Shown here: in pieces, positions 31,217-51,392 of the stretch | How positions within the stretch are numbered: the stretch's first letter is position 1 | Layout: every line of letters begins with the position of its first letter | IMG/VR virus record: IMGVR_UViG_3300009151_000084 | Span: 1 to 57,205 of that record | From: a virus | Taxonomy: Duplodnaviria; Caudoviricetes | Direction: 5' to 3' (one strand) | Length of the DNA stretch: 57,205 bases | Notes under the pieces: generated by a model | The model's database searches: none | What the model was told of the DNA's origin: nothing | The model's input: only the letters and a program-made list of their open reading frames with translations | Program-made: the position numbers and the translations under genes

Positions 31217-32638
31217 GTGTTCACAGTGAACACTTTGACTGACTCGCTCGAGCTGTTCAAGAGTGAGGAGTTCCGCAAGACGTACCTGAGCGCCCCTGCG
31301 GTTAATCGCATCGCGTTCAACTGGCGCCTGAAGTGGCTGTCGACCGCGCACCCCCACCAGATCACCCCGAGCGGGGACTGGTACAACATCCACCTTCTAT
31401 TAGCAGGAAGGGGGGCGGGCAAGACGAGGGTGGCGGCGGAGCAGATCGGATGGTGGGCGTGGCAGCTGCCTAACAGTAGGTGGCTAGTCTCCGCCCCCAC
31501 GAGCTCGGACGTCAGGGCTACCTGCTTTGAGGGTGACTCTGGGCTGATCAGCGTAATCCCACCTGAGCTCGTGGCTGACTACAACAAGAGCTACCACGAG
31601 ATCAAGCTGATCAATGGCTCGCTGATCAAGGGGATCCCCGCGTCAGAGCCTGAGCGCTTTCGCGGTGGTCAGTATCATGGCGCTTGGCTCGATGAGTTAG
31701 CCGCGTGGGACTACCTCAGAGAAGCGTGGGACATGATCCAGTTCGGCGTGCGTCTGGGCAACAAGACAATGATCTTGGCTACCACCACGCCTAAGCCGAA
31801 AGAACTGATCCTAGAGCTGATCGAGCGCGATGGCGATGACGTCTGTGTCACGACGGCTTCGACCCACTCTAATATAGATAACCTCGCGCCAAGCTTTAAG
31901 GCGCAGATCCTGAGCTACGAGGGCACCAAGATCGGCAGGCAGGAGATCTACGCCGAGATCATCGATCCAGAGGAGGGAGGGATTATCGTCAGGGACTGGT
32001 TCCGCCTGTGGTCAGCGGAGCGGGCGTTCCCTGAGTTCGAGTACATCCTGCAGAGCTACGACACGGCGTTCACTGAGCGCACGACAGGCGATCCGACGGC
32101 GTGTTCGGTCTGGGGTATATTCAAGCCCCTCGATCGTCCGCTATGCGCGATGCTGATCGACTGTTGGTCGGAGCACCTCGCGTACCCTGACCTGAAGCCG
32201 AAGCTGTTAGAGGACTATGAGGCGGTGTACGGGGAGCCCGGCAAGCGCGTCGACCTCGTCCTCATCGAGGAGAAGGCGAGCGGGCAGTCGTTGATACAAG
32301 ACCTTGGCAGAGCGCATGTGCAGGTGCGGGGCTATAACCCCGGGAAGTTGGACAAAGTGCAACGCGTCCACCTCATCTCAAACATCATCGCCGCAGGGCG
32401 CGTCTACATCCCTGAGTCGACCAAGCGCAAGGGCTACGTCCGCGACTGGGCTGAGCCCTTCGTGCAGCAGGTCTGCTCGTTCCCTGAGACCAGCCACGAT
32501 GACTACGTCGACACGATGTCGCAGGCGCTGCGCTACCTGAGAGACGCAGGCTTCCTAGACATCGACCCCGATCCGCATTATGATGACGAATACGTCGACG
32601 ACTCTCGCATCAAGCGAGTCAACCCTTACGCAGCGTGA
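31217..32638 (+). CDS. terL: Terminase large subunit
   Basis: AGRGAGKT Walker A, WLDE Walker B, TTTP, QSYDTA, IEEKASG, HDDYVD. The start could be GTG 31226. Confidence 0.92.
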   Translation: MFTVNTLTDSLELFKSEEFRKTYLSAPAVNRIAFNWRLKWLSTAHPHQITPSGDWYNIHLLLAGRGAGKTRVAAEQIGWWAWQLPNSRWLVSAPTSSDVRATCFEGDSGLISVIPPELVADYNKSYHEIKLINGSLIKGIPASEPERFRGGQYHGAWLDELAAWDYLREAWDMIQFGVRLGNKTMILATTTPKPKELILELIERDGDDVCVTTASTHSNIDNLAPSFKAQILSYEGTKIGRQEIYAEIIDPEEGGIIVRDWFRLWSAERAFPEFEYILQSYDTAFTERTTGDPTACSVWGIFKPLDRPLCAMLIDCWSEHLAYPDLKPKLLEDYEAVYGEPGKRVDLVLIEEKASGQSLIQDLGRAHVQVRGYNPGKLDKVQRVHLISNIIAAGRVYIPESTKRKGYVRDWAEPFVQQVCSFPETSHDDYVDTMSQALRYLRDAGFLDIDPDPHYDDEYVDDSRIKRVNPYAA

Positions 32639-35600
32639 CGACTATGTCTAAATTCTCCATTACAGAATCAGCCTCACCTGTGCTAATAGCCATCGAGCGT
32701 GCCAAGCGGCTGATCGAGGCGGAGAAGGCAAAGGCGCCAACCGTCATGACGCGCAGTGGCATCACCGATCTTGCTAACCGCGTGCGGCAGAGCGAGGGAC
32801 AGTACGGCGCCCAACGCGTTGAGCGGGCTGCGGACGAGATCCCGAACCTCGAGAAGCTGTATCAAGATCAAGCGTTAATGCGTGCATTCACTGGCGACAA
32901 CGCGCAAGGGCTGATGACAATGAAGCCATCGGACTTCGAGCGCTATGCGGCTCCGCTTGACGCTAACTTGTCAGGCAGAAGTTTGCAAAAGATTGCCGAT
33001 ATCACTGGCTTTCACAATAACGGTGGGTTTTCTGATGTGCCGTACCTAAACATTAATAAGATGCAGCAAGGCTCGACTGGCTTGCCTTACATCTCTGGGC
33101 ATGAGGGCAGGCACCGCAGCCGAGTAATGGATGCGGCAGGCGAGCAGGCAGGTCTGGTTCAGCTAGTACCGCGGTCGGAGCTGCGCGAGCCGTTCCCCCG
33201 TCGGTCGAGAGAAGACTACCTCGAGGCGCTCTACAAAGAGATGCAACTGACAGGCAACCGCGTCAAGCCACAGAGGTATGATGAACCCGTAACAGACTCA
33301 GCCGACCGCGTGATTGAGCTCCGTAGCAAACAACGCCCCACGATTGAGCTGCCAGAGTTCTACGCCGAGGGCGGCATGATCACCGATCAGCAGACCCCCG
33401 CGGTCGAGGCGCTCAAGCAGACGGTGCAGGACGACGGCGCCAACAAGATGCTGAACCTCGACCTCGCCAAGCTCGCGATCATGCATCAGCCGCAGCGCAT
33501 GGCAGGCGGTGGCGTGCTACACATGAGCAAGGCAGGCTCGGTAACAGACATGGCGGTGGCGGTCGAGAAGGCGAAGCGCAAGCTCTCTGCAGAAGCCGTA
33601 GAAAGGGCAGCGCAACGCGCACTGGATCGTGCTTCGGTCAGGGAACGGGAAGAGGCGGAGGGCTACTACCACCCGATCGGGGGCGGCAACAAGCTGACCA
33701 CGCCGACGAGCCAGATGTCAGCAGAGTATGCGCCTACCGCGGGGGTCAACATGACGCCGCAGCAAACCGTCAACCCAGAGAAGATAGTAGGCGGCGCAAG
33801 CGTACCGCTAGGTGGCGACGCAGCGTTGGGGGGCGTAGATCTGATTGGCATCAATGGCAGAAAATTGTCCGCACCTGTCACGCTGCAGGCGGGGGAAAGT
33901 TTCAGCAGGCAGAACCCCGGCGAGGGGTGGAGATCCCACCAGAACGTCATCAGCTTGCTAGACAATCGCATGCGCGACGCCTACGGCTTGGGCGCTGATA
34001 ACGTGTATGGGGCGTACACGTCGATGGGCCCGATCGCGGGCGACTTTAACCACATGACCACGCAAGCCCTGCTGCGACAGTTTGATCCAAAGACATTTAA
34101 GAAAGCGTTCGAGTTCAACAACGACGTTAGAACACTTGGCGCGTTGGATCCGAACACAGGAGCGATGGTTTACCACGGCAAAGACTTCGTCGGTCTACAA
34201 CACCCAGACCTCGAGAAGCAGTTGATGGATTACGGGAGCGGCAACCTTCGTAAGGTATTCCTCAACCGTGCGCAGATGGCAAGGTATCAGCGCGAGGGCA
34301 TGCCTGACGTGGCGTCCACTAGGTACGGTGTCAACGACCCGACCATGCTGAACACGCCGATCGGCACCGTTGGCAGGAGTATTTCTCAGTTCCCAAGGGC
34401 TGATAGACAAATCATATCGTCGCAGTACCCACCTCACGGTTCATACCCCGCAGGCTTGTATGGCGACTACGTTGGCGGTCTAGAACATCCAGTCTCCTAC
34501 AAAGACTGGTTTCATACATTCTTTGACCCACGCGTAGCCAAGAACGAAAGCCCTGCGAACGAGAATTTTGCATTCATGCGCTCTACGCCGATACAGCTCC
34601 ACACTCAACAGTGGCTTGATCGCGTGATGGGCTCCATCAAGAAGCAGCAGGATGCGCTGAAGCTAGGCACCTACGCAGAAGGCGGCGCCGTCCACATGGA
34701 AGACGGTGGCGACGTTGAGCTACCCACTGGCGGTCTATCGACTGACGTCGGCACCAACCCCCTAAGCATCTACAACCAGAACCTGCCCAAGCCTGAGATG
34801 CGCCTGCACGCACGGCGCAAGACCGCCCCCGATGGCGAGCCAAGCACGATGGACGTGGCGCGACAGCTAGGCATGATGGCGAAGGAGCAGGCAGGCGAGG
34901 AGTGGGACACCCTGAAGGCAAACCCTGTGCGCGGCGCCCTCGACATCCTCAACCGTGGCATGGTCGCAGGCAACGTCGGAGCGCCTGTCGACATTGTCAA
35001 CATGGGGCTGCAGGGCGTCAACTACCTGACAAAGAAGGCAGGGCTAGGTGGCGACTGGGCGTCTGAGAAGCCAGTGATGGGCTCGAAGTGGATCGAAGAC
35101 AAGATGAACGAGCTCGGCATCACGTCAGACAAACATTACCCCATGCTCGAGCTCGCAGCCAACTTCTTGAACCCCGTGGGAATCACCGCGGGGGCGGCGA
35201 AGGCGGCGCCAGTGATCGGCAAGAACGTGTTGATGCCTCTCGCGGAGAAGGGGCTGACGATGTTTGAGAAGGGGCAGTTGACGCCCGGCTTCAAACCCAT
35301 CTCCGAAGTATTCGCAGGCAGCACAGCAAAAGGCGCCGACCTCGCCGCCCGCGATACCGCCAAGGCACGCCTAGCGGCAGGCGAGGATCCCGCGCTTGTC
35401 TGGAAGGAGACAGGATGGGCAGCACCACCGTGGGCGCCGAACGACCTGCGCTTCGAGATCAGTGACCACGCCATGACCTCAAACGCCCCTGCGGCGGTTA
35501 ATGCAAAGCTTGATGCGCATAGCAGAAAGTTGGCAAATGTTTATTATGCTCAGGAAATTAAACGCAATGTCGCATCAGGTGATGCATTCGACGATGCCGT

Positions 35601-36504
35601 GGTAAAAGCCGAGGCTACTGTAAAAAACGCAGGGTTAAAGTTACCGATGACGCCAGAGGCTGAGGCTTTAGCCCGCGATCCTAACGTCACTCGCGCAGAA
35701 CTCGTCAAGGAGTTTGACAAGGGGAAGGTCAAAAAAATCTCCACCATTGGCAAGCTGTCTGGCAAACTAGACAAGTTCGTCGACCATGATGAGTTCTTTG
35801 CGGCGTACCCTGACTTTGCACAGAAGATCAAATTCAAAACTCTCAACGCAAAAGAGACGAACAGGCTGCACGGCTCCTTTAGTCCGTCAGATGCAGAGCT
35901 CTCAATGAGTGCTCCGCAATTGAGAAGCAAGCCAAACGATGCGCTCGATACAATCATCCATGAATTGCAGCACGGCGTGCAGTCGCGTGAGCGGTGGAAC
36001 AATGGTGGCAACTCTAGTAGCGTTACAGCCTATCCCTCCAATTACGATCCTGTCACCGCTCAGTCAAAACAGCAACTCACAGATATGATGGTTGCTGACA
36101 ATGGTAGGCTCGGCGATCTGTACAGGAAGGGGCAGACAACTAAGTTGAGTCCAATGGAGATTCAAGAGCTGAACCACCGAATCAGGAGCACTCCAGAGTA
36201 TTCAAAGTATCAGAAAGACGCACTAACCTTCCGACAAAGCGATACTCCGTACGCGCTGTACGAGCGCTTAGCAGGCGAGGCAGAGGCTCGGTTGGCGCAA
36301 GGGCGCAGAACGCTGAAGCCAAACGAGCGTCAGGATCAGTACCCCTACGACCCGCAACACTTCAAAAAGCTGACTGGTTATGACATTAATTCAATAATCG
36401 CCAACCCTGTCAGGGCGGCAAATAATTTCAGCAAAGGTGGCGCCGCAAGTCACCCGTCTGTTGAAGAGATGCGCATCGAGATGATGGAGCGTAAGCATGG
36501 CTGA
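32635..36504 (+). CDS. Giant multi-domain (polyvalent-type) virion cargo protein 1
   Basis: ParB-like HEGRHR; LPD23-like WKETGW...RFEISD; zincin HELQH...GEAEAR; several YAEGG/MEDGG linkers. Confidence 0.7.
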   Translation: MTTMSKFSITESASPVLIAIERAKRLIEAEKAKAPTVMTRSGITDLANRVRQSEGQYGAQRVERAADEIPNLEKLYQDQALMRAFTGDNAQGLMTMKPSDFERYAAPLDANLSGRSLQKIADITGFHNNGGFSDVPYLNINKMQQGSTGLPYISGHEGRHRSRVMDAAGEQAGLVQLVPRSELREPFPRRSREDYLEALYKEMQLTGNRVKPQRYDEPVTDSADRVIELRSKQRPTIELPEFYAEGGMITDQQTPAVEALKQTVQDDGANKMLNLDLAKLAIMHQPQRMAGGGVLHMSKAGSVTDMAVAVEKAKRKLSAEAVERAAQRALDRASVREREEAEGYYHPIGGGNKLTTPTSQMSAEYAPTAGVNMTPQQTVNPEKIVGGASVPLGGDAALGGVDLIGINGRKLSAPVTLQAGESFSRQNPGEGWRSHQNVISLLDNRMRDAYGLGADNVYGAYTSMGPIAGDFNHMTTQALLRQFDPKTFKKAFEFNNDVRTLGALDPNTGAMVYHGKDFVGLQHPDLEKQLMDYGSGNLRKVFLNRAQMARYQREGMPDVASTRYGVNDPTMLNTPIGTVGRSISQFPRADRQIISSQYPPHGSYPAGLYGDYVGGLEHPVSYKDWFHTFFDPRVAKNESPANENFAFMRSTPIQLHTQQWLDRVMGSIKKQQDALKLGTYAEGGAVHMEDGGDVELPTGGLSTDVGTNPLSIYNQNLPKPEMRLHARRKTAPDGEPSTMDVARQLGMMAKEQAGEEWDTLKANPVRGALDILNRGMVAGNVGAPVDIVNMGLQGVNYLTKKAGLGGDWASEKPVMGSKWIEDKMNELGITSDKHYPMLELAANFLNPVGITAGAAKAAPVIGKNVLMPLAEKGLTMFEKGQLTPGFKPISEVFAGSTAKGADLAARDTAKARLAAGEDPALVWKETGWAAPPWAPNDLRFEISDHAMTSNAPAAVNAKLDAHSRKLANVYYAQEIKRNVASGDAFDDAVVKAEATVKNAGLKLPMTPEAEALARDPNVTRAELVKEFDKGKVKKISTIGKLSGKLDKFVDHDEFFAAYPDFAQKIKFKTLNAKETNRLHGSFSPSDAELSMSAPQLRSKPNDALDTIIHELQHGVQSRERWNNGGNSSSVTAYPSNYDPVTAQSKQQLTDMMVADNGRLGDLYRKGQTTKLSPMEIQELNHRIRSTPEYSKYQKDALTFRQSDTPYALYERLAGEAEARLAQGRRTLKPNERQDQYPYDPQHFKKLTGYDINSIIANPVRAANNFSKGGAASHPSVEEMRIEMMERKHG

Positions 36505-39500
36505 TCCAGTCAAGGCAGCACAGGTCGTCGAGATGGCGCTTAAACGCGCTCGACAGGCAGCGAAGTCCGCTCGGATCGCCGAGTACAAGGATCCCGTCAC
36601 CACTAAGGCGGAAGACTGGAAGTGGAAGCCCCTTGAGGGAGTAGCGGACAAGCTAAAGATCGAGGCGGTGCCTGACTACATTCAGGGCGGCTACGGCGAC
36701 TTCATGAAGGAGCAGCTCAAGCGTGCGGAGAAGGGCGACCTCAACGCTCGAGATCTAATCAAGGCATACACGATCACGCAGGCGTCGATCGGTCGCGGTG
36801 GTCTGTCGCACTCGACGGCGACCAAGCACGGCTTGCGATTACCCAACACTGGCGAAGAGGTTCGTCCCGAAGGCGCGTTCGCTGAGTGGCTAGGTTCACC
36901 GATGGGGCAGCGCTACCTCAATGCTGCGGAGCTCGGCAAGCCAGACGCTGCTGCGATGCAACAATTGCGCACAATGTTCTCCCCTTACGGCAAGCAAGAC
37001 GATCAAGTCGCCAAGATGCAGTGGGCGGCGGACAACCTGCCGAACATGGCGAAGGATCTCAATGCGAGGGTAGCAGGCGGTCGCGACGAGTGGCGCGATT
37101 ACTCTGACAGCCTGCGAGGTATCGCTGCAGCGAAGTCAGGCTTCGTTGGCTCCCTGCTCGGACGTGGCGACATCCCCACGCTTGACGCACGTCAGATCAA
37201 TCTGCACACGACACCCGCACCAGTAAGCATGGGCTCGATTCAGAACCGCGGCAAGGGTACAGGTGGGCGTGAGCTCGTCGATCGCTTGGCGGCGCGTCAG
37301 GATGCGCTTGAGCTAGGATTAGACCCAAGCCTCGCCCCCTTCTATCAGCACCTCGGTCACCACGCGGTATGGGACAAGATCGGCGGCACCGAGACCACGC
37401 ACAACGACCTCATGAAGGCGATGCGTGGTTACGACAAGGGTGGCGCGGTTCATATGGAGGACGGCGGCATTACGCCACGCGCTTTCAGCTTTTCACCCAC
37501 AGATCGTGATGAGCATAATCGCAAGCTAGGATTGCCTGCTGAGTTCTATCGTTCAGGTCAAACCGATCCAACAATGCAGAGTTACGGCGCAGGTATGAGC
37601 GTTCCAGTTGGGGGCGCTAGGCTGACCGCCGATGCAATAGCATCACGCAATGCGCAGATGCGCGACACACTAGCAGGTATCATGCTCGGCGCTGAGTTTC
37701 CTGTCGGTAGCGGTACGCTTCGCGCTGAGATGATGCGACCAACAATGCAAGGTGCCTCACCTCAATATGGGTTGAGATACAGCAGACCATTTGCTGAAGG
37801 CGGTCAAGTGCAGCGCTTCGATGAGGGCGGCGACGTCAACCAAGCAGAGCTCGATCGCATGCGGCTAGAACTAGCCAACAGCCCTGTCATCCAAGCCACG
37901 CCACAGTCCACCACGCAGAAGATGATCGGCACGGTAGGTGGCTACATGGATCAGGCAGGCAAGTTCGTCAGCGAGGCGATGAAGCCTATTGCTGAGACGC
38001 ACCCGATCCGCACCTTCCTGACAGACATGATGATTGCGGATCCGCTCAAGAGCGCAGGCGCCGCGCTGCAGGACTATACGAAGACTAGCCGCGACATCAC
38101 CGAGGAGCAGCCCTACACCCGCAGCCCTGTCACAGGGAGCGGTCAGACGCTACGCCTTGACCCTCGCGTGCTAGACGTCGCACAGTTCGCGACGCCTGTC
38201 ATCAGGGGGGCGACCAAGCTTGCAGGGGCAGGAGCGAAGGCGGTGGCGCCGTTTGCGTCGAAGGTGGACGACATGGTGCGGGAGCTGTACGAGGCGGGGA
38301 CGCTTCCACAGCCGGGGTTGTCAATCAAAGACGTCACCCCCAAGGCTCTCGCCCCCGCCAATGAGCAGGGGTTCTACTCGCCTACTGAGGCGGCAGCACT
38401 GAACCTGCAGCGCAAGTCAGGCAACGGTCAGCAGTTCTTAAACGACATCCTGAAAGGCGATAACGTGCGCTCGGAAGAGGTCAGCAACATGGGGCTCGAC
38501 ACGTTCCTGAAAGACAAGAAGAACGTCACAGCGGCTGAGGTGCAGGACTTCATCGCGCAGAACAAGATGAGATTGGATGAATCGAGGTATGGGGCAGTTA
38601 AAGAAGACCCTGTTGGAATGGAAAAACGCAAAGAGATATTTGATTCTTATCAACCTGAAATTGATAGGCTATACAAAGAACATGATGCTTATTTTGACGC
38701 AGGGGACAATGCAGCTAGGCGCAAAGTTGAAGAGCAAATAATTAACGTGCAACTTAAAAGAAATTTAGAAGCCCATAGCGCGTATAAACTTCCTATTTCT
38801 AAGCATACAAGATTTGAAGATTGGCAACTCCCCGGCGGCGAGAACTACCGCGAGGTGGTGTTGACATTGCCACAAACGCCAGAGCATAGTGAGTTTGCTC
38901 GTCTTAATAAAAAAATGAATGAAGATGGTTTGCTTCCTGATGAAATGAATCGTTGGACGGAGTTAGGCGGTGATCTAGGCGCGGAAGGCAGACGTCAAGC
39001 TAAGGAAGGAAGGTATCGAACCCCTCATTGGGAGGACGTAAATCCCATCGCCCACATTCGTTTAAGCGACCGTGTGACTGACGGCAAGAAGACGCTGTTG
39101 GTTGATGAGGTGCAGTCTGACTGGCATCAGGCAGCGCGAGACATCAGAACCGCAGAGGTTAAACGGTTGGTTGAAACATACAATGTATCAAAAGAAGATG
39201 CGCAGAAAGCCGTGCCGAAAGATTATGGATATAGAATTGCTGACCCAGTAAAAAAGAATGCAGACGGCACGTTCACTGTGATTCAAAACGATGGCACGGT
39301 AATGAATTTTCCTGCCACAACAGACATTGACATGCTTCGAGGTAGTTTTGGAGCTGACGCAGGCGTACCTGACGCGCCTTACAAAGACGATTGGTATCAA
39401 CTTGCGCTCAAGCGTGCGGTCAAAGAAGCGATTGATGGCGGCTACGACCGTGTGGCGCTGCCAACTGGTGAACGTGTCGCAGATCGGTTTCAATTGACTC

Positions 39501-40099
39501 ATTACATCGATCGGATTGCCCACAAAAAAAATGCCGACGGTACATATAGCCTTGCTGCCGTTGACAAGGAAGGCAGACCTGCGTTGAATGACAAGAGCGT
39601 GCCGCAAGATAAATTGGCAGGCATCGTTGGTAAAGAAGTGGCTCAAAAAATTATTGATGCTGAAGGGAAGGGGTACCCGAAAGGAAGCGTTAGCGAAGAT
39701 ATGCTTATTTTGTCAGGTCTTGATCTAAAGACTGGCGGCGAGGGTATGAAGAAGTATTACGACGAGATCTACCCTAGCTACCTCAAGAAGTTCGGCAAGA
39801 AATACGGCGCAACAGTTGGCAAGACTGATGTTGTTACTGATAACAAAGCCAATGGAATTTTGGAAGCCAACGGAAAATTTTTTGTTATTTCAGATGATGG
39901 CATTAACTTCAAAGAATTTAATAATTACACCGAAGCGGCTAAGCATTTAGGCGTTGGTGTAGAACCCCTGCACTACATGGACATCACCCCCGCGATGCGC
40001 AAGGAGTTCAAGACAGGCATTCACATGAAGAAGGGCGGCGCAGTACACTTCGCTGACTCACTAGACGCAATGCGTCATGAATTAACAAAGGCTAAATAA
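36497..40099 (+). CDS. Giant multi-domain (polyvalent-type) virion cargo protein 2
   Basis: HhH-glycosylase-like N-terminal module; beta-rich module; GFYS...LPGGENYRE...DEVQSDWHQ module; xxxGG linkers. Confidence 0.7.
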   Translation: MADPVKAAQVVEMALKRARQAAKSARIAEYKDPVTTKAEDWKWKPLEGVADKLKIEAVPDYIQGGYGDFMKEQLKRAEKGDLNARDLIKAYTITQASIGRGGLSHSTATKHGLRLPNTGEEVRPEGAFAEWLGSPMGQRYLNAAELGKPDAAAMQQLRTMFSPYGKQDDQVAKMQWAADNLPNMAKDLNARVAGGRDEWRDYSDSLRGIAAAKSGFVGSLLGRGDIPTLDARQINLHTTPAPVSMGSIQNRGKGTGGRELVDRLAARQDALELGLDPSLAPFYQHLGHHAVWDKIGGTETTHNDLMKAMRGYDKGGAVHMEDGGITPRAFSFSPTDRDEHNRKLGLPAEFYRSGQTDPTMQSYGAGMSVPVGGARLTADAIASRNAQMRDTLAGIMLGAEFPVGSGTLRAEMMRPTMQGASPQYGLRYSRPFAEGGQVQRFDEGGDVNQAELDRMRLELANSPVIQATPQSTTQKMIGTVGGYMDQAGKFVSEAMKPIAETHPIRTFLTDMMIADPLKSAGAALQDYTKTSRDITEEQPYTRSPVTGSGQTLRLDPRVLDVAQFATPVIRGATKLAGAGAKAVAPFASKVDDMVRELYEAGTLPQPGLSIKDVTPKALAPANEQGFYSPTEAAALNLQRKSGNGQQFLNDILKGDNVRSEEVSNMGLDTFLKDKKNVTAAEVQDFIAQNKMRLDESRYGAVKEDPVGMEKRKEIFDSYQPEIDRLYKEHDAYFDAGDNAARRKVEEQIINVQLKRNLEAHSAYKLPISKHTRFEDWQLPGGENYREVVLTLPQTPEHSEFARLNKKMNEDGLLPDEMNRWTELGGDLGAEGRRQAKEGRYRTPHWEDVNPIAHIRLSDRVTDGKKTLLVDEVQSDWHQAARDIRTAEVKRLVETYNVSKEDAQKAVPKDYGYRIADPVKKNADGTFTVIQNDGTVMNFPATTDIDMLRGSFGADAGVPDAPYKDDWYQLALKRAVKEAIDGGYDRVALPTGERVADRFQLTHYIDRIAHKKNADGTYSLAAVDKEGRPALNDKSVPQDKLAGIVGKEVAQKIIDAEGKGYPKGSVSEDMLILSGLDLKTGGEGMKKYYDEIYPSYLKKFGKKYGATVGKTDVVTDNKANGILEANGKFFVISDDGINFKEFNNYTEAAKHLGVGVEPLHYMDITPAMRKEFKTGIHMKKGGAVHFADSLDAMRHELTKAK

Positions 40100-42681
40100 T
40101 GGCTACTCAAATGCCCATCCCGCAGGACTATGATCCGACGTCTGAGGACAGTAGCGCTCTAGATAACACCGCACTGACAGACATATTCAACGATGATGTT
40201 CAGCAAGAGGTTGAAGAGCAAGAAGACGGATCCGCGATCGTCCGCTTGGATGACTTAAAGACGCCTGAACAGTCGCCCTCGTTCTACGAGAACATGGTTG
40301 ATGACATCGACGCGTGGCGCCTGTCGACGATCGCGTTGAAGTACCTCGACATGATAGAGAAGGATAAGGAAGCCCGTGAAGGACGCGACAAGCAGTACGA
40401 AGAGGGATTGCGTAGGACTGGGTTGGGGCATGACGCCCCCGGCGGTGCGCAGTTCATGGGCGCCTCCCGCGTCGTGCATCCTGTCATGGCTGAGGCGTGC
40501 ATCGACTTCTCTGCGCGGGCGATTAAGGAGTTGTTTCCGCCTGACGGGCCCGTCAAGACAAAGATCAACGGCGAAGTAACCGAGGCTAAGACCACCAAAG
40601 CCGAGCGCAAGCGCGACTTCATGAACTGGCAGCTTACCGAGCAGATCGAAGAGTACCGCGACGAGGAGGAGCAGATCCTAACCCAGACACCCCTTGGCGG
40701 ATCGCAGTACATGAAGATCTGGCGCGACGATCAGAAGAAGCGCTCGTGCGTCGAGTTCCTGCCGATCGACAACGTCTACCTTCCCTACGCCGCGGGCAAC
40801 TTCTACACTGCTAGTCGCGTGACCGAGGTCAACAACATCACGCAAGAAGAGTTTGAGCTGCGCGTGTCGAAGGGTTTGTATGCTGACATCAGCATCTATC
40901 GATCGAGCGAGGAGCCTGAGCTCACCAAGCCTGAGAAGGCGAACGACAAGATCGAGGGCAAGAAGTCAGAGTACGAGAACATTGATGGCGTGCGCACCGT
41001 TTATCACATCTATACATTCATGGAGGAGGAGGATGACCGATTCTCCAAGGGTGAACGCGCCCCTTACATCCTGATGATTGACAAGAACACTTCCGAGGTC
41101 GTGGGTTTGTACCGCAACTGGGAGGACGGCGACAAGCAGATGTCCAAGCTTGACTGGATCATTGAGTTTAAATTCATTCCGTGGAGGGGTGCGTATGCGA
41201 TTGGGTTGCCTCATCTTATCGGTGGCTTGTCTGCTGCTCTTACTGGCGCTCTTAGAGCTCTGCTTGATTCTGCTCATATAAACACCAACCCGACGATGCT
41301 CAAGTTAAAGGGCGGCAAGGTGTCAGGGCAGTCGATTGTTGTTGAGCCCACGCAGGTGACGGAGATCGAGGGGGCGCCGGGGATTGACGACATCCGCAAG
41401 ATCGCCATGCCCATGCCCTTCAACCAACCAAGCCCAACCCTACTGAGTCTATTAGGATGGCTCACCGACGCCGCTAAAGGGGTCGTCACGACCGCCGAAG
41501 AGAAGATCGCCAACGTGAATGCCAATGCCCCTGTAGGCACGACGCAGGCGCTGATCGAGCAGGGCTCAGCAGTGTTCTCAGCTATTCACGCACGCCTACA
41601 TCAGTCGCAGGCAAAGGTGTTCAAGGTTCTGGCTCGTTTGAACCGTTGGTACCTCGACGAGGATGATATCGAGATGGCGAAGGAGCTCGGCGTGACAAGC
41701 GCTGACTTCGAGAAGAACGACGATATCGTGCCTGTGTCAGATCCGCATATCTTTTCGGAGACTCAGCGCTATGCTCAGGTTCAGGCTCTCGCGGCACGAG
41801 CGGCAGCGAATCCACAAATCTATAATCTGTTGGCTGTTGAGAAGCGAATTCTTAAACAGCTCAAGATTCCTGATACGAACGAAGTGCTACCTGATCCGCA
41901 GGATGTTAAGCAGATGAACCCTGCGCTCGAGAATGTGGCGATGACGATAGGGAAGCCCGCGGGGGCGTTCCCCGGTCAAGACCACCTCGCGCACATTCAG
42001 GTGCTTCTGGACTACGCCAAAGACCCGATGTACGGTTCCAACCCCATCATCGCGCCTGTGTTCATCCCCCGCGCCCTCGAGCACCTCAAGCAGCATCTGA
42101 CGCTCTGGTACCTCGACTCGATGGACAACTACACAAGCAAAGCGTTGGGTAGGCGCTTTGACATCCTGAAAGAAGAACCCATCATTAAGGAGGCTCAGCA
42201 ATTGCTCGCGGCATCATCGCAGCATGTCTTCATGGACGTCCCTCAGCAATTCAATGGCGTCGCGCCAGTCATGCAGCAGATGATGGGCATGATGCAGCAG
42301 CTTCGCCAACAGCAGCAGCCGCAGGATCCTAGCGTACAGGCTCTGGTACAGACTCAGATGGCTGAGACTCAGCGCAAGGCGAAGAATGACAACGATCGCC
42401 TACAGCTTGACGCAGCTAAATTGGCTGCAGACACTCAAGCCAAGCAAGAGAAGAACGTGGCTGACGAGCAAATGAAGGCTGCAGAGATCACGCACGATAT
42501 CAACGTGCTCACGCTCGAACAGCAACACGAAATGCAGCGTCAGCAACTGCAGGCGCAGCAACAGCAGCAACTTCAAGAACAGGCGGCGCAGCAAGCTCAA
42601 CAGCAAGCAATGCAGCAATCTGAGCAGGAGCAGCAAATGCAACAAATGCAACAAGAACCTCAACCTCAGCAAGGAGTTTAA
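40099..42681 (+). CDS. Portal protein
   Basis: F.GASRVVHPVMAEAC.DF.ARA.KELFP..GPVKT, YAIGLPHLIGGLS, APVGTT.ALIEQG; Gln-rich tail; follows the terminase region. Confidence 0.85.
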   Translation: MATQMPIPQDYDPTSEDSSALDNTALTDIFNDDVQQEVEEQEDGSAIVRLDDLKTPEQSPSFYENMVDDIDAWRLSTIALKYLDMIEKDKEAREGRDKQYEEGLRRTGLGHDAPGGAQFMGASRVVHPVMAEACIDFSARAIKELFPPDGPVKTKINGEVTEAKTTKAERKRDFMNWQLTEQIEEYRDEEEQILTQTPLGGSQYMKIWRDDQKKRSCVEFLPIDNVYLPYAAGNFYTASRVTEVNNITQEEFELRVSKGLYADISIYRSSEEPELTKPEKANDKIEGKKSEYENIDGVRTVYHIYTFMEEEDDRFSKGERAPYILMIDKNTSEVVGLYRNWEDGDKQMSKLDWIIEFKFIPWRGAYAIGLPHLIGGLSAALTGALRALLDSAHINTNPTMLKLKGGKVSGQSIVVEPTQVTEIEGAPGIDDIRKIAMPMPFNQPSPTLLSLLGWLTDAAKGVVTTAEEKIANVNANAPVGTTQALIEQGSAVFSAIHARLHQSQAKVFKVLARLNRWYLDEDDIEMAKELGVTSADFEKNDDIVPVSDPHIFSETQRYAQVQALAARAAANPQIYNLLAVEKRILKQLKIPDTNEVLPDPQDVKQMNPALENVAMTIGKPAGAFPGQDHLAHIQVLLDYAKDPMYGSNPIIAPVFIPRALEHLKQHLTLWYLDSMDNYTSKALGRRFDILKEEPIIKEAQQLLAASSQHVFMDVPQQFNGVAPVMQQMMGMMQQLRQQQQPQDPSVQALVQTQMAETQRKAKNDNDRLQLDAAKLAADTQAKQEKNVADEQMKAAEITHDINVLTLEQQHEMQRQQLQAQQQQQLQEQAAQQAQQQAMQQSEQEQQMQQMQQEPQPQQGV

Positions 42682-42683
42682 TC

Positions 42684-42941
42684 ATGTCAGAAGCAATTTC
42701 GCAGCACAAGAAGATGGCAATGGGCGAGTCAGTGCCTATGGCTAAGGGCAAGTCAGTTATGCCTAAATACGCGTCAGGTGGCGCCGTCATGAAAGAGGGT
42801 GGCGTAGCTAACCTACCCGCCAAAGGATCGGCACCTCCACCCCTCGCACGTCCTGCAGCAGGCATGGCAGGCAAGATCGCTACCCTGAAGAAGGGCGGTG
42901 CCGCTAAGCCAATGCGCAAGGTAGCAGGTCGTGGAAGGTAG
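42684..42941 (+). CDS. Small basic protein with three xxxGG motifs
   Basis: AAGGAG RBS; YASGG, MKEGG, LKKGG. Confidence 0.7.
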   Translation: MSEAISQHKKMAMGESVPMAKGKSVMPKYASGGAVMKEGGVANLPAKGSAPPPLARPAAGMAGKIATLKKGGAAKPMRKVAGRGR

Positions 42942-43147: not shown

Positions 43148-43555
43148 ATGACGCTTGATGAAGCATTTCCCGCAGTAGATTCTGGCTGTACTCCACTAGG
43201 TGGTCGAGTATTGATTCAGTTCAAACAGGTGCCAAAGAAGACCACAGCAAGTGGGATCATTTTAATGGAAGATACCAAAGAGACTGAAAAGTGGAACACT
43301 CAAGTCGCAAAAGTTGTTGCGCTTGGGGCACTAGCCTACAAAAACCGCGACACAATGGAGCCGTGGCCCGAGGGCACATGGGCTAAGGTCGGCGACTTCG
43401 TTCGCGTTCCAAAGTGGGGTGGCGACCGTTGGGAAGTTCCTTACGGTGAAGTGGTCAATGGCGATCAAGATATGGCGCTGTTCTCCGTGTTCAACGATCA
43501 CGAGATCATCTCTAAGGTGACTGGCGATCCATTGAAAGTGAAGGCATTCTTATGA
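43148..43555 (+). CDS. groES: Co-chaperonin GroES-like protein
   Basis: PLGGRVLI, TASGIIL, KVVALG, KVGDFV, NDHEII; AAGGAG RBS. Confidence 0.85.
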   Translation: MTLDEAFPAVDSGCTPLGGRVLIQFKQVPKKTTASGIILMEDTKETEKWNTQVAKVVALGALAYKNRDTMEPWPEGTWAKVGDFVRVPKWGGDRWEVPYGEVVNGDQDMALFSVFNDHEIISKVTGDPLKVKAFL

Positions 43556-44529
43556 ACTCAACAGACAAGATGGAAATGCAGGTCGAGGAGTCATCCGACG
43601 GCAGCGCGATGATCGAATTGCCCTTGCAAGAGGGTGATGTTGCGCAGCCAATGTCGCAAGGTGGCGCCGTGGAGGACGACGACGATCATGAAGATGGCTC
43701 TGACGGGCTAGATTCAGACCCAGATCGTGAAGCAATCCGCGCAGCACGTCGCGAAGAGCGCAAGCTCAAGAAGTCTATCCACCGTGAGAAGGCAAAAGAG
43801 TCTAATCACCTGATCAATGCCCTCAAAAAGCAGAATCAGCAGTTGGCGGACAGGCTTGCAAACCTCGAAACGCGCACTTCAGGTGCCGAATTGGGGCGTG
43901 TCGAGAAGGTGATGGAAGACACGCAGGTGCAGATCGAGTACGCGAAGATGAAGATGAAGGAAGCTGTCGCCTCGCAGGACGGAGAATCGATGGTTCGGGC
44001 GCAGGAATTGATGTATGAGTCGATGCGCAAGTACGAAGCGCTCAAAAACATCAAGGAAAATGCCACGAGGCAGATGTCTCAGCCCCAACAGGCGAACATT
44101 CAACTCCCTGACCCTAGCGTACAGCGTAATGCGGCTGATTGGATGCGCAAAAACAGTTGGTACGACCCCGCGGGCAAGGATTTAGACTCCGAACTCACGC
44201 AAAGTATCGACAAACGACTCACCGCAGAGGGTTATGACCCTTCAAGCTCAGAATATTGGGAAGAATTGGACACGCGCCTAGCAAAATACCTTCCGCATCT
44301 CTACGATAGCGGCGGTAATCGCAATAATTCAGAGAGACGCGAGCGTCCGCGCTCGGCAGTCACTGGAACAGGCAGGGAATCGACACCATCTCGCAGTGGT
44401 AGCAACTTTACGCTCTCACCGCAGCGTGTTGCCGCCATCAAAGAGATGGGGATCTGGGATGACCCTGACAAGCGTAAGAAAATGATTAACCGATTCATCG
44501 AGTATGACCGTCAAAACAAAGGAAATTGA
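43552..44529 (+). CDS. Putative capsid scaffolding protein
   Basis: Acidic N-terminus, long coiled coil, W..KNSWY, C-terminal helix; lies between portal and capsid. Confidence 0.65.
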   Translation: MNSTDKMEMQVEESSDGSAMIELPLQEGDVAQPMSQGGAVEDDDDHEDGSDGLDSDPDREAIRAARREERKLKKSIHREKAKESNHLINALKKQNQQLADRLANLETRTSGAELGRVEKVMEDTQVQIEYAKMKMKEAVASQDGESMVRAQELMYESMRKYEALKNIKENATRQMSQPQQANIQLPDPSVQRNAADWMRKNSWYDPAGKDLDSELTQSIDKRLTAEGYDPSSSEYWEELDTRLAKYLPHLYDSGGNRNNSERRERPRSAVTGTGRESTPSRSGSNFTLSPQRVAAIKEMGIWDDPDKRKKMINRFIEYDRQNKGN

Positions 44530-45068
44530 TCATGGATGACCGTATCCGCAAGAACACTGGCGCAGGTCGTGAAAACCGCGCTGTAGTAGACAAACGTCGC
44601 GCTCCTGCAGACGACGCACTAGCCTCGGCGCCAACACGCCGTCGTCGCTTCCAGTCAGAATTCACGCAGGAAGCGCTGCCGACCGTCAAAGGCGATCCGA
44701 ACTGGCATTACTGTTGGTTATCTACAACAAACCAGTACGACACCATCCACAGCCGCATGCGCTTGGGCTATCAGGCGGTGCTGTGCGATGAGCTCGAAGG
44801 TATGGAGCATCTCAAGGTCAAAGAGGGTGAGCACGTCGGTCACGTCTCCTGCAATGAGATGATTCTGTACAAGTTGCCGATGGACATCTACCAAGACTGG
44901 ATGGCAGAGAAGCATCACTATCAGCCGATGGAAGAAGCAGGCAAGATCCGCGTTCAGCAGGAGCAATTATTGAACTCGGCTCGCGACAGCAACGGCAAGA
45001 GCTTGATCCGCGCTGAGGGTGACTTGTTAGACGGGGAACGCGACATCCCTGCTCCTATTTTTGAATAG
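44526..45068 (+). CDS. Conserved head-region hypothetical protein
   Basis: WHYCWLST...R..LGY..V...EM.LYKLP; start 44526 or 44532. Confidence 0.7.
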   Translation: MIMDDRIRKNTGAGRENRAVVDKRRAPADDALASAPTRRRRFQSEFTQEALPTVKGDPNWHYCWLSTTNQYDTIHSRMRLGYQAVLCDELEGMEHLKVKEGEHVGHVSCNEMILYKLPMDIYQDWMAEKHHYQPMEEAGKIRVQQEQLLNSARDSNGKSLIRAEGDLLDGERDIPAPIFE

Positions 45069-45104
45069 TTGTTTTATTTATTTAGAAAGAGCATAATATT
45101 GCAA

Positions 45105-45193
45105 AGATCGCCTGCTTTGAACAAGGTGGGCGATCTACAAAACGCTATCCTAAAAATCACGTTGGTGATTTTGCCTGACGCTTTGAACAAAGC
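45105..45193 (+). promoter_or_regulatory. Structured leader of the capsid operon (three hairpins, two with a GAAC loop)
   Basis: Stems 45105-45136, 45153-45172 and 45180-45193; GCTTTGAACAA occurs twice. Confidence 0.5.
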
Positions 45194-45234
45194 CGAAACC
45201 AAAATTTTCATCTAACAATTTTTAGGAGCATCCT

Positions 45235-45822
45235 ATGAGTGCAACCTCTGCACCTTTTGGTCTGCGACCCGCGTTTCATCCTACTGGATTGGATCGCGCT
45301 CAAGCGCTCGCCAACGGCATTACATCTGGCTACGCTACTAACATCCTGAAAGGTCAGGCTGTTCAGTATTCGCCAAACGCAGGCGTCATTTTGCCTGTTC
45401 TTGATACAACAACCAACAGCGGTTTAGTCTCTGGCGCCTTTGCGGGTGTTGAGTGGACTGACACCACTGGTCGTCGTCGCGTGTCGAATTATTGGCCCGC
45501 CTCCACAGCCGTAATCGCAGGTAGCGTCGTTGCGTATTTTTACAACGATCAGCAGATCGTGTACGAGATCCAGACCGACGGTACGATGGCTCAAACGGCA
45601 GTAGGCAACGAAGCCAACTTGAGCAATTTCACCGCAGGGTCAAGCACTACGGGTTTGTCGCAGATGACTTTATCAGCCACATTGGTTGGTTCAGGCTCAG
45701 CAGCGCAGTTTCGTATTGTTGATCTGGCGCCGATTCCCGGGAACAACTGGGGTGATCCGTTCGTCGTAGTCCGCGTACAGATCTCCAAGCCACAGTTCAT
45801 CTCAACTGTTAACGCTATCTAA
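45235..45822 (+). CDS. Capsid decoration / cement-like protein
   Basis: AGGAG RBS; APFGLRP N-terminus, G.F.GVE.TD, GS.TTGLS; immediately upstream of the major capsid gene. Confidence 0.65.
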   Translation: MSATSAPFGLRPAFHPTGLDRAQALANGITSGYATNILKGQAVQYSPNAGVILPVLDTTTNSGLVSGAFAGVEWTDTTGRRRVSNYWPASTAVIAGSVVAYFYNDQQIVYEIQTDGTMAQTAVGNEANLSNFTAGSSTTGLSQMTLSATLVGSGSAAQFRIVDLAPIPGNNWGDPFVVVRVQISKPQFISTVNAI

Positions 45823-45833
45823 GGGGAACTGAC

Positions 45834-46748
45834 ATGGCAGCTCCAATGCGCAGTACCGACTTTAGAAGTATCGTTGAGCCGATTCTCAGTGAATGCTTTG
45901 ACGGAGTCTATGACCAACGCTCAGATGAATGGAGCCAAGTGTTCCGTGAACAGATGGGCATTCCCCGTAACTACCACGAAGAACCCGTTCTCTACGGTTT
46001 CGGTGCGGCTCCTGAATTGCCTGACGGCACTCCAGTTTCGTACCAACAAGGTGGCGTACTCTTCCTGCAACGCTATGTGTACAAGGTCTACGGCTTAGCC
46101 TTCGCCTTGACCAAAGTGTTGGTTGAAGACGGCGACCATATCCGTATCGGGCAGGTTTATGCAAAGCACTTAGCTCAATCACTGGTTGAGACCAAAGAGA
46201 CGCTTGCAGCCAACGTGCTCAACAACGCCTTCAACAGCTCCTACACTGGCGGCGACGGCGTACAGTTAAGCGCATCTACCCATCCTATCGTCAACGGTAC
46301 CTTCAGCAACCTCCTTGCGACTGCTGCGAACCTTTCGCAGACTTCGCTCGAACAGATGTTGATTCAGGTTCGCTTGGCAGTGGATAACAACGGCAAGAAG
46401 ATCCGCTTGCAGCCGCTGAAGCTTGTGGTTGCCCCCGGCAACGTGTTCCAAGCCGAGGTTCTGCTGAAATCGGTTCTTCGTACTGGCACCGCCAACAACG
46501 ACGTGAACCCAGTCAAATCGATTGGTTTGATTCCTGAAGGCGCTGCGGTCATCAGCCGTTTGACTTCGGCTACTAACTGGTGGGTGCAAACCGACGCACC
46601 AGAAGGCGCCAAGTTGATGATGCGTCGTGGTCTTGAGAAGACGATGGAAGGTGACTTTGAAACCGACTCCATGCGTTACAAGGCTACTGAGCGTTACTGG
46701 GTCAGTTGGACTGACCCACGCTGCCTCTTCGGTACGCCCGGAGTGTAA
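45834..46748 (+). CDS. Major capsid protein (HK97 fold, Mu gpT-like family)
   Basis: GFGAAP...G, KE..AANVLN.AF, GGDG..L....HP, EGDFET...RYKA.ERY...W.DPR...G.PG; followed by a terminator. Confidence 0.88.
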   Translation: MAAPMRSTDFRSIVEPILSECFDGVYDQRSDEWSQVFREQMGIPRNYHEEPVLYGFGAAPELPDGTPVSYQQGGVLFLQRYVYKVYGLAFALTKVLVEDGDHIRIGQVYAKHLAQSLVETKETLAANVLNNAFNSSYTGGDGVQLSASTHPIVNGTFSNLLATAANLSQTSLEQMLIQVRLAVDNNGKKIRLQPLKLVVAPGNVFQAEVLLKSVLRTGTANNDVNPVKSIGLIPEGAAVISRLTSATNWWVQTDAPEGAKLMMRRGLEKTMEGDFETDSMRYKATERYWVSWTDPRCLFGTPGV

Positions 46749-46752
46749 AGCG

Positions 46753-46784
46753 AAGGGGGGTGAGCTCAATTCACCCCCTTTTTT
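46753..46784 (+). terminator. Rho-independent terminator
   Basis: GGGGGTGA-gctcaat-TCACCCCC followed by T6. Confidence 0.85.
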
Positions 46785-46823
46785 AATTCAATTCTGAGTG
46801 GTTCAAGCCACAGGAGTTTTAAA

Positions 46824-47795: not shown

Positions 47796-47806
47796 AGGGG
47801 TAAATC

Positions 47807-48343
47807 ATGGGTCAATTTAAGCCAATGCCGAAGATGGAAACCACCGAGCCTTCAGTCATCCTGAAGCTCAAGAAAGGTGGTGTTGCGAAGAAAGCAATGG
47901 GTGGGGCTCTGCCAGTTGGACAGCCTCAGACAGCCCGCTTGCCTGCGATTGTTCCTCCTACAGCACCTGCTATGGCGGCTGCACGCCCTCGGGGTGCAAC
48001 GCTGATGGCGTCGCGTGCGCCGATGCGCCCAAGCCCCGGGATACCTCCACAGGCAATGGGTCGCAAGAAAGGTGGCGAGATCGAAGGCAAAGCCGAGCAC
48101 GCCAAGGAAGAGCGCGAGATCAAAGGCATCAAGAAAGAGCTCATGTCGCACGAGGACAAGCCTGCGTCGAAGGCGCACAAGGGCTTAAAGCGTGGTGGTA
48201 AAACATCACGCACCTACGTTGCCAATGACAATCTTGCAATGGTGAACAAGGCACGCCGCGGTTATGCCGATGGTGGTCACGTTGCGATGGGTTGCAAAAG
48301 CACTGACGGTTTTAAAGCCAGTAAAAAAGGCGGTTCTTTTTAG
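47807..48343 (+). CDS. Basic low-complexity protein with six xxxGG motifs
   Basis: LKKGG, KAMGG, RKKGG, LKRGG, YADGG, SKKGG. Confidence 0.7.
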   Translation: MGQFKPMPKMETTEPSVILKLKKGGVAKKAMGGALPVGQPQTARLPAIVPPTAPAMAAARPRGATLMASRAPMRPSPGIPPQAMGRKKGGEIEGKAEHAKEEREIKGIKKELMSHEDKPASKAHKGLKRGGKTSRTYVANDNLAMVNKARRGYADGGHVAMGCKSTDGFKASKKGGSF

Positions 48344-48375
48344 AAAAAAGGGGGAGGTAACCTCTCCTTTTTTTT
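48344..48375. terminator. Bidirectional-type intrinsic terminator
   Basis: A6-GGGGGAGG-taa-CCTCTCC-T8. Confidence 0.8.
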
Positions 48376-48394
48376 GAAATCTTACAGGTGAAAT

Positions 48395-51022: not shown

Positions 51023-51023
51023 T

Positions 51024-51392
51024 ATGCCAAGCAAATCACCTGCCCAAAAGCATCTGATGCAAGCCGCTGCCCACACCAAGGGTGGGTTCGGTGGTGTACC
51101 TCAGTCCGTGGGCAAGGAATTTGCGAAGGCTGACAAGATGAAAGACGGCGGAGTATCGCTCGCAGTAGGTCGCGGTGAGAAATTACCCACCAAGCAGGGC
51201 GCAGGACTTACGGCTAAAGGTCGCGCAAAGTACAATAGCGAGACTGGTAGCCACTTAAAAGCGCCGCAGCCGCAGGGCGGATCTCGCAAGGATTCATTCT
51301 GCGCAAGGATGAGCGGTGTAGTCAAGCACGCAAGCGGTGATGCGCCTCGCGCAAAAGCCTCACTGAAACGATGGAAATGCCCGGGGTGGTAA
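51024..51392 (+). CDS. Two-module small basic protein (MPSKS module plus DUF6321-like domain)
   Basis: MPSKSPAQ..LM.AAAH; MKDGG linker; GLTAKGRAKYN...LKAP...SFCARM.G...L.RWKC. Confidence 0.65.
   Translation: MPSKSPAQKHLMQAAAHTKGGFGGVPQSVGKEFAKADKMKDGGVSLAVGRGEKLPTKQGAGLTAKGRAKYNSETGSHLKAPQPQGGSRKDSFCARMSGVVKHASGDAPRAKASLKRWKCPGW

Follow-up and report, generated by a model that had tools for sequence, protein, structure and literature searches.

A recurrent Gly-Gly peptide and C-terminal tail in late phage proteins, a possible docking or encapsidation tag

Late genes of the window and the proteins that carry the motif

The window analysed in this work is the complete 57,205-base virus record IMGVR_UViG_3300009151_000084 (Caudoviricetes), whose late genes occupy the + strand from about position 30,644 onwards and, past the window end, the first bases up to about 13,443. 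A short peptide with the core [YFM]-[AK]-x-G-G-x-[VIA] recurs in seven of the late proteins, and this motif is, as judged from the sequence, a specific, selected peptide that marks a defined subset of the late proteins, at their ends and at junctions within them. The late-gene order was derived from family searches of the window proteins, and the motif-bearing genes are listed below (ORF, open reading frame; aa, amino acids).

32635..36504, + strand: giant ORF32635, polyvalent cargo protein A, 1289 aa; begins within the last bases of the large terminase gene
36497..40099, + strand: giant ORF36497, polyvalent cargo protein B, 1200 aa; the stop codon overlaps with the start codon of the portal gene
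42684..42941, + strand: small basic protein ORF42684, 85 aa, directly after the portal gene
43552-44529, + strand: scaffold-like protein (family search), with an acidic N-terminal part
47807..48343, + strand: basic repeat protein ORF47807, 178 aa, 35 K+R versus 14 D+E, probably disordered
51024-51392, + strand: DUF6321 protein ORF51024, 122 aa, with DUF6321 at aa 60-117
Late protein ORF7085, + strand: 613 aa, with one motif copy at 8624

Protein A contains five strict copies of the motif (at 33361, 33499, 34672, 34696 and 36427) and an additional LPTGG at 34720, and five copies were located in protein B (37430, 37454, 37790, 37817 and 40025). ORF42684, with 16 K+R versus 3 D+E, has three copies (42768, 42789 and 42885), ORF47807 has three strict copies among its six GG dipeptides, and the scaffold-like protein and ORF51024 have one each, at 43651 and 51138, respectively. 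All copies listed in an initial annotation of this DNA, including an FKEGG in the early ORF24359, were found again. The carriers of the motif are a subset of the late proteins, namely, the multidomain giants, small basic disordered proteins, some scaffolds and one DUF6321 protein. The same annotation had pointed to the peptide GGAVHMEDGG, which is indeed identical in protein A (34681-34710) and protein B (37439-37468), whereas the encoding DNA is identical at 24 of 30 bases. Since each of the six differences is a synonymous third position, selection acts on the peptide.

The frequency of the motif was compared with that in shuffled sequences that keep the composition of each protein. The strict form [YFM][AKDSE]xGGx[VIA] occurs 10 times in six motif proteins versus 0.27 times after shuffling, a number that none of 2000 shuffles reached, and it occurs neither in the other late proteins (0.59 expected) nor in the early proteins (0.10 expected), so that the comparison of late with early proteins proposed in the initial annotation came out in favour of enrichment. 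As the group of motif-bearing proteins was picked after the motif had been seen, a register control was added, and the independent support comes from this control and from the relatives described below. In the seven motif proteins, Y, F or M stands three residues before GG 20 times versus 3-8 times in eight other registers, whereas no enrichment was observed in 24 other late proteins (6 versus 3-13 in the other registers). Moreover, V, I or A is found at position +2 after GG in 13 of the 20 [YFM]xxGG copies of the motif proteins, as compared to 9 of their 40 other GG dipeptides.

Several similar peptides in the window are probably not part of the signal: YQQGG in the capsid protein (46041) appears to be a feature of the fold and is shared by Caulobacter phage RW, which lacks the motif; LKTGG (39725) is enclosed in a domain that is folded with confidence in the model; and YIQGG (36677) is located within a predicted helix. 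A glycine-rich late protein (402-1343, + strand; 31.5% Gly; Gly_rich_2 domain) gives rise to spurious matches to loose versions of the motif.

The remaining late genes are the following.

30644-31216, + strand: small terminase, Sf6 type (family search)
31217-32638, + strand: large terminase (family search)
40099-42681, + strand: portal (family search)
43148-43555, + strand: GroES-like protein (family search)
44526-45068, + strand: 180-aa protein, between the scaffold-like and capsid genes
45235-45822, + strand: 195-aa protein, upstream of the major capsid gene
45834-46748, + strand: major capsid protein (family search)
After the major capsid gene and before the repeat protein, + strand: 323-aa protein
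Between the repeat protein and the 122-aa protein, + strand: 875-aa virion protein
After 51392, + strand: adaptor-like protein, then fibre and other late proteins
10093-11994, + strand: late protein with an M23 peptidase domain (PF01551)

By portal similarity, the nearest named relatives are the uncultured freshwater phage MW202545.1 (57%) and RW-type Caulobacter phages (49%), followed by the Roseobacter phages CRP-901/CRP-902 (35%) and the Pelagibacter phages HTVC027P/HTVC023P (31-34%). Closer uncultured relatives were found in IMG/VR, with at least 594 confirmed capsid-protein matches and 325 portal matches. The capsid protein (45834-46748, alignment A4) is unusually conserved, with a mean column identity of 92% over 31 sequences, as compared to 68% (portal), 59% (180-aa protein) and 54% (scaffold). 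The C-terminus of the portal (42400-42681) is a long low-complexity, Gln-rich tail. The GroES-like gene adjoins the portal and scaffold genes here and in every named relative examined (L002, L214, L215, L218, L219 and L220), and in phage DSL-LC05 it is found immediately upstream of the portal gene; its product could be either a true co-chaperonin or a part of head assembly. Elsewhere in the window (21977-22807, + strand), a match to the TET-associated glycosyltransferase family (TAGT; E 1.5e-42) hints that this phage may sugar-modify its own DNA bases.

Motif copies at module junctions and in related phages

Protein A carries LPD23 (PF18838) at aa 892-948 (E 2e-11, above the curated cut-off) and an HExxH motif at aa 1109. 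Given this class domain in A and the position of both genes between those for terminase and portal, proteins A and B were assigned to the polyvalent proteins. Within these giants and the other carriers, the copies are arranged as follows (pLDDT, predicted local distance difference test).

33361..33513, + strand: YAEGG (33361) and MAGGG (33499), with a helix-like stretch after the second; block end at aa 249, motif at aa 243
34672..34734, + strand: triple tandem of YAEGG, MEDGG and LPTGG with a period of 8 residues; block end at aa 678, motif at aa 680
36427..36501, + strand: C-terminal tail of protein A, FSKGG and a short helix, one of 22 aligned tails; match to the helix pattern at aa 1275
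37430..37468, + strand: tandem YDKGG and MEDGG in protein B, where the block of aa 4-316 ends; pLDDT below 50 and no regular structure in the model
37790..37891, + strand: tandem FAEGG and FDEGG followed by a helix (H449-460), an internal copy of the tail; the block of aa 430-1200 starts here
40025..40096, + strand: C-terminal tail of protein B, with MKKGG ahead of a flexible segment and a helix at the very end; first row of alignment A2
43651..43665, + strand: MSQGG, single copy in the acidic N-terminal part of the scaffold-like protein
51138..51152, + strand: MKDGG, joining two modules of the 122-aa protein whose halves occur separately in other phages
8624..8638, + strand: FKDGG of ORF7085, of uncertain status and without V/I/A at +2

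Protein A of the window has homology-block ends at residues 249 and 678, close to its motifs at 243 and 680, and protein B has them at residues 316 and 430, close to its motifs at 312 and 432. This agrees with the view of the initial annotation that the motif sits at domain boundaries in the giants, and the agreement extends to a set of 41 proteins, in which a motif is found no more than 15 residues away from 47 of 355 breakpoints versus 20.1 ± 4.3 for random positions, and none of 2000 random trials reached 47. The N-terminal module of protein B (aa 4-316) is the C-terminal module in locus L185, and the C-terminal module of protein B (approximately aa 600-1170) is strongly conserved over 75 aligned sequences. 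The slot between terminase and portal genes is hypervariable, with proteins of about 350 to 2211 aa that are mostly unrelated between close relatives; this slot (32635-40099; loci L134-L213) is a hot spot of cargo swapping. The clustering of breakpoints at the motif and the permutation of modules between relatives would be consistent with a motif that is kept mainly as an in-frame junction for recombinational module swapping. This explanation is nevertheless considered very unlikely, as the DNA of the two giants differs at 6 of 30 bases under an identical peptide, and as extreme C-termini carry the motif too, as do proteins without modules, with as many as 15 copies.

An AlphaFold2 model of protein B was obtained with a mean pLDDT of 59. 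The copies at residues 312, 320, 432 and 441 were placed in irregular segments with a pLDDT below 50, which is weak evidence because the alignment is shallow at these internal copies, and the copy at residue 1177 lies just past the last folded element, where residues 1179-1186 (pLDDT below 50) are followed by a helix at 1189-1198. The initial annotation had suggested structure prediction to locate the motifs in interdomain linkers; this expectation is weakly supported by the internal copies just mentioned, and only LKTGG and YIQGG, which are probably not part of the signal, were placed in a folded domain and a helix, respectively. A Foldseek search with the protein B model provided no match at E<=0.001.

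The single motif of the 122-aa protein also lies at a junction. A free-standing DUF6321 homologue of phage DSL-LC05 starts at the residue right after the position of the GG. The DUF6321 module (aa 61-119) was detected in 525 phage records, many of them from T4-like cyanophages, in which it is annotated as structural and is often C-terminal in larger proteins, and the N-terminal 59 residues of the 122-aa protein match 58-aa proteins of phiKZ-like Pseudomonas phages.

A different arrangement was observed in the small basic proteins. The small basic proteins encoded after the portal gene in relatives have 2-3 copies each, and among 62 related loci with enough sequence, 15 distinct small post-portal proteins with at least two motifs were identified, the motif positions being conserved among those listed. 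The 121 sequences of the repeat-protein family contain 2-15 copies each (median 7) in a background of 15% K, 16% G and 8% M and with a net charge of +11 per 100 aa; the spacing between copies peaks at 8-12 and 33-45 residues, and some copies come from long internal duplications. Many proteins end 1-8 residues after GG, and the repeat-protein family alone has 23 distinct ends of this type. A terminal Cys or Cys-Trp a few residues past the last GG was observed in many repeat-protein homologues and in some other small motif proteins. A tblastn search of the repeat protein against 50,697 phage records gave no match.

These properties are of relevance to the possibility that the motif is a physical element that needs no reader, namely, a glycine hinge or turn flanked by hydrophobic residues that might ease threading through the portal and, in basic proteins, help to condense DNA. 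Its occurrence in predicted disordered regions and in Lys-rich, strongly basic proteins as well as the preferred 8-12-residue spacing of tandem copies are compatible with this proposal. However, a plain hinge has no need for a hydrophobic residue fixed at three positions before GG together with V/I/A at +2, nor does it account for the conserved helix that is kept at a constant distance from the C-terminus in the proteins of 304 clusters (see below), and it is regarded as a rather improbable explanation.

For a wider view of the motif, + strand ORFs were called in 213 fetched loci and assigned to the window proteins by BLASTP. [YFM]xxGG was found 55 times versus 11.8 after shuffling in relatives of protein A (17 unique sequences), 41 versus 9.6 in those of protein B (11 sequences), 669 versus 82.7 in those of the repeat protein (121 sequences), 107 versus 15.3 in those of the 122-aa protein (111 sequences), 16 versus 5.1 in those of the scaffold (130 sequences, of which only a minority carry the motif) and 500 versus 157 in unassigned ORFs (2017 sequences). 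Other families were at or below expectation, such as the large terminase (2 versus 8.9), portal (11 versus 27.4), GroES-like protein (0 versus 8.7), 180-aa protein (0 versus 8.5) and fibre (48 versus 89.1). Since the sequences are related, these family counts are not independent events, and it is the pattern over unrelated families that counts: the motif is conserved in at least six of them. A proposed avoidance of the motif by non-cargo proteins was dropped, since all 11 families are below the shuffle expectation, yet the register control gave no specific depletion.

The sequence logo, based on 724 and 419 distinct contexts, reads G/K, Y/M/L/F, K/A, K/T/D/E, G-G, a variable position and V/A/I. 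In the families, Y, F or M stands three residues before GG in 888 cases versus 91 cases at two residues before, as compared to 20 versus 3 in the window. Examples from named phages are MW202545.1, with nine copies in a 449-aa repeat-protein homologue and a separate 171-aa protein that ends with the motif, Pelagibacter phage HTVC027P, with the motif in small proteins after the portal gene, and Planktothrix phage Pag-Yong1, with the motif in two proteins after the capsid gene; it was not evident in phages RW and CRP-901. An origin of the motif by chance, from Gly-rich composition or internal duplication, could draw on the long internal duplications in the repeat protein and on the kinship that inflates the family counts. 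Such an artefact is hardly credible, because composition-preserving shuffles yield far fewer copies and the enrichment is confined to one register, because the motif is found in several unrelated families and in distant phages, and because its columns are invariant inside otherwise variable alignments.

The shared C-terminal tail and what might read it

A tail cassette of about 24-25 residues consists of the motif, 0-4 further residues, a short amphipathic helix with the pattern [SN]-[LIV]-[DE]-x-M-[RK]-x-[EA]-[LM] and a basic end, and the GG and the helix M are invariant in 22 aligned tails. In 75 sequences of protein B, residues G1180, G1181, V1183 and M1192 of the terminal tail are invariant, and A433, G435 and G436 of the internal tail (residues 432-465) are at least 90% conserved. 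The full tail, as defined by the strict pattern, ends the slot protein in 24 of 61 loci with distinct portals and, with one substitution, in three more.

A word-seeded profile search with the tail resulted in 296 proteins at E<=0.01, and the precomputed domains of tail-bearing proteins are diverse (PF18760, PF14284, PF02195, PF22322, PF18838 and PF26151). An exhaustive search of 1.84 billion representatives with the tail profile identified 304 clusters at E<=0.001, of which 47 were at E<=1e-10, and at least one of the matches listed is a false positive, a repetitive protein that is not phage-like. The tail is hence present in 304 protein clusters with unrelated cargo domains, which is a broader observation than that of the initial annotation. 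The distance from the C-terminus is nearly fixed: in 91 of the 96 full-length matches of the word-seeded search, 20-23 residues separate the GG from the end, and in 66 of these the distance is exactly 21. Among these 91 proteins, 21 have a further internal tail. The helix half of the tail is also found at N-termini, its pattern being present within the first 45 residues in 19 of the 91 proteins versus 0.1 expected by shuffling. Of 238 pooled stored proteins, 237 match the profile, and, as they were selected by the same profile, only the position of the match is informative: it ends within 5 residues of the C-terminus in 224, and 23 proteins also have an N-terminal and 67 an internal match. One of the proteins, P0108, joins a fragment with FtsH-like AAA and M41 peptidase parts to the conserved module and tail of protein B, which is either a real fusion or an assembly chimera.

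It is proposed, as a possibility rather than a probability, that the motif serves as a docking or encapsidation tag, which may be coupled to cleavage, on proteins of the head interior. The labelled proteins would be carried inside the capsid and, in analogy to other phages, ejected into the host. The core to be recognised would consist of Y/F/M (sometimes L), A/K, any residue, G-G, any residue and V/I/A, and the cassette would dock the cargo on a conserved part of the assembling head, the candidates being the portal, the scaffold and the inner surface of the capsid protein. Whatever protein bears the cassette would thereby become enclosed. Fusion of cargo genes would leave a cassette between modules, and the small basic disordered proteins with their many copies would bind with high avidity. 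Cleavage at the glycines might follow docking.

A number of observations led us to favour the docking tag. Unrelated cargo proteins finish with one and the same tail, whose GG keeps a constant distance from the C-terminus; many copies stand so close to the C-terminus that a cut would release nothing; the helix of the tail shows conservation of its own; the scans revealed no protease; and there are precedents in encapsulins and, from the parts of the sources considered here, in phage N4 (PMC8346489, PMC13434306). The enrichment is confined to a subset of late proteins and to one register, with V/I/A coupled to it at +2, and this too counts for a tag, as does the predicted flexible tail that follows the last folded element and ends in a helix. 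Since the motif is the front half of a longer tail common to unrelated cargo, "tag" is somewhat favoured over "polyprotein processing". Of the "cleavage site and/or packaging tag" offered by the initial annotation, a selected peptide signal in a late subset has thus stood, with its tag half somewhat favoured, whereas the likeness to adenovirus-type sites did not hold in their spacing.

The principal alternative is a role of the motif as a cleavage site. A protease specific for Gly-Gly, encoded by the phage with a fold that was not recognised or supplied by the host, would free effector domains, trim termini and chop up the basic repeat proteins, at head maturation or after ejection. This alternative is regarded as somewhat less likely than the docking tag, and several observations speak for it. 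Copies are at module junctions in low-confidence segments without regular structure and in large number in disordered, core-like proteins, and GG-directed viral proteases are known. The DUF6321 homologue of DSL-LC05 starts right after the GG position, and 19 of 91 tail proteins begin with the helix that trails internal GG copies, so that these N-termini look like those of cleavage products. Furthermore, proteolytic processing of polyvalent proteins was predicted by Iyer et al. 2017, in the part of that source considered here (PMC5512222). The points that speak against a protease site are the copies 1-8 residues from the C-terminus, the conserved helix after the final GG, which cleavage would turn into a waste peptide of 19 residues if it had no separate function, and the lack of register-specific motif avoidance in non-cargo proteins.

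The enzyme itself was also sought. In the window proteins scanned, including those of the head module and early genes, there was no match to a prohead protease in Pfam, PHROGs or NCBIfam, in agreement with the initial annotation, which had recognised no standard one, and none to an adenovirus-clan cysteine protease in the family searches. The only protease-like features of the scanned proteins are the M23 domain and the HExxH motif, neither of which is conserved with the motif. The M23 family includes Gly-Gly endopeptidases, but PF01551 is present in 0 of 4 related complete genomes, including those of the motif-positive MW202545.1 and HTVC027P, and M23 was rejected as the conserved reader; the module with the HExxH of protein A has no counterpart in most relatives. 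The absence of family matches may be compatible with an enzyme of unrecognised fold. As a candidate for a hidden protease, the 180-aa protein was modelled with AlphaFold2 from 40 sequences (mean pLDDT 72.5), and the model matched no known fold, the best Foldseek hit in the PDB having an E of 0.23 and the best hit of a wide structural search a Z of 4.9; in the Atlas, only unnamed viral clusters were close to it. For the 195-aa protein, the nearest named Atlas clusters are phage cement proteins (0.81-0.83), which is a weak lead only. A resemblance to the GroES mobile loop was considered because a GroES-like gene is part of the head module, and was rejected, by reasoning only, since the conserved hydrophobic positions differ.

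Several points weigh against the docking tag. A reader or binding partner was looked for by family searches, candidate models and a prediction of the portal-tail complex, and none was identified; the complex prediction with the portal (alignment A6) and the tail (alignment A2) had a score of 0.00, which is neither for nor against binding. The number of up to 15 copies per protein and the copies at internal junctions resemble protease sites as well, and the low model confidence at internal copies may in part result from the shallow alignment. The location of the labelled proteins in the virion is a prediction from gene position, composition and the LPD23 domain. In addition, one clade of 26-27 loci has no C-terminal tail, and its slot protein keeps 1-3 internal motif copies. 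When the presence of the tail was compared with an N-terminal portal motif, PIPxD[YF]xR, the tail-less loci formed one clade on a quick portal tree, with L185, L163 and L165 as exceptions, so that the apparent link between tail and portal motif is essentially one evolutionary event and has no statistical weight.

Docking and cleavage could be combined. In a wider and still more tentative proposal, motif and helix would form a portable encapsidation code of a large, mostly uncultured group of aquatic podovirus-like phages, by which any carrier, whether of 350 or of over 2200 residues and whichever of the six or more types of cargo domain it has, would be loaded and injected, so that tailed phages would have an equivalent of the cargo-loading peptides of encapsulins; in a variant of this proposal, the code would be read by a Gly-Gly-specific maturation protease of unrecognised fold.

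Relation to known targeting and processing systems

The capsid-targeting sequence of phage T4 is an N-terminal peptide of about 10 residues that ends in (L/I)-x-E and is removed by the prohead protease gp21. It is thought to direct proteins into the prohead, with many copies of the peptide in the core protein and few in each cargo protein, and the T4 core proteins carry multiple protease sites. The system described here resembles that of T4 in that one short peptide is common to internal and core or scaffold head proteins, with few copies in cargo and many in the core, and a docking step followed by cleavage would have its parallel there. It differs in that the signal is C-terminal or internal and has a G-G core, and in that the scanned proteins gave no match to a prohead protease family.

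The adenovirus protease and pS273R of African swine fever virus cut at G-G preceded by a hydrophobic residue, and the substrates of such GG-directed proteases include several core proteins, among them basic DNA-associated precursors. At the adenovirus-type site, (M/L/I)-x-G-G|x, the hydrophobic residue is at the fourth position before the cut, whereas in the motif of this work it would be at the fifth position before a cut after GG.

Another relevant system is that of the polyvalent proteins, for which Iyer et al. 2017 predicted packaging and, perhaps, processing, with self-processing by metallopeptidase domains as a proposal (PMC5512222, in part). Proteins A and B resemble them in their large size, multiple domains, the LPD23 domain of A and the position beside terminase and portal genes, and tail-bearing proteins among relatives carry PF18760, PF02195 and PF18838. 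A shared tail or Gly-Gly motif is not named in the part of PMC5512222 considered. More generally, no description of the motif or the tail was found in the literature covered, the supplementary alignments of PMC5512222 lying outside this search.

Phage N4 is a podovirus with a giant packaged protein, and in its full virions short helical or peptide segments of the ejection proteins occupy the portal wing and the lumen of the adaptor, from which they disappear upon ejection (PMC13434306, in part). The similarity to the present case consists of the giant packaged protein and of short segments of ejection proteins that sit on portal and adaptor, although a common tag of the N4 ejection proteins is not described in the sections of that source considered (PMC13434306).

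Binding to the inner face of the shell protein is a defining property of the family 1 targeting peptides of encapsulins. Encapsulin targeting peptides are short, are located in disordered tails and load unrelated cargo into a shell of the HK97 fold; in one family of encapsulin cargo they are found between domains and again at the C-terminus, and N-terminal copies also occur (PMC8346489, in part). A short peptide in a predicted disordered C-terminal tail of unrelated cargo is likewise present here. However, the family 1 consensus SDGSLGIGSLKRS, as given in the part of PMC8346489 considered, was not matched by the logo or the tail alignment of this work, and encapsulins are compartments of cells rather than virions.

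The loading of large, fast-evolving polyvalent effectors into the phage head thus has a concrete and testable signal candidate in the tail. If the docking tag proves true, sequence alone would suffice to recognise injected proteins in the genomes of uncultured phages, the free swapping of cargo in the terminase-portal slot would be explained, and a tag would be at hand for the loading of foreign proteins into phage heads. If the motif is a cleavage site instead, a group of phages in which no maturation protease is recognisable would be expected to make use of one specific for Gly-Gly. By analogy, the signal would function like the T4 capsid-targeting sequence or an encapsulin targeting peptide, while it is a member of neither by sequence or position.

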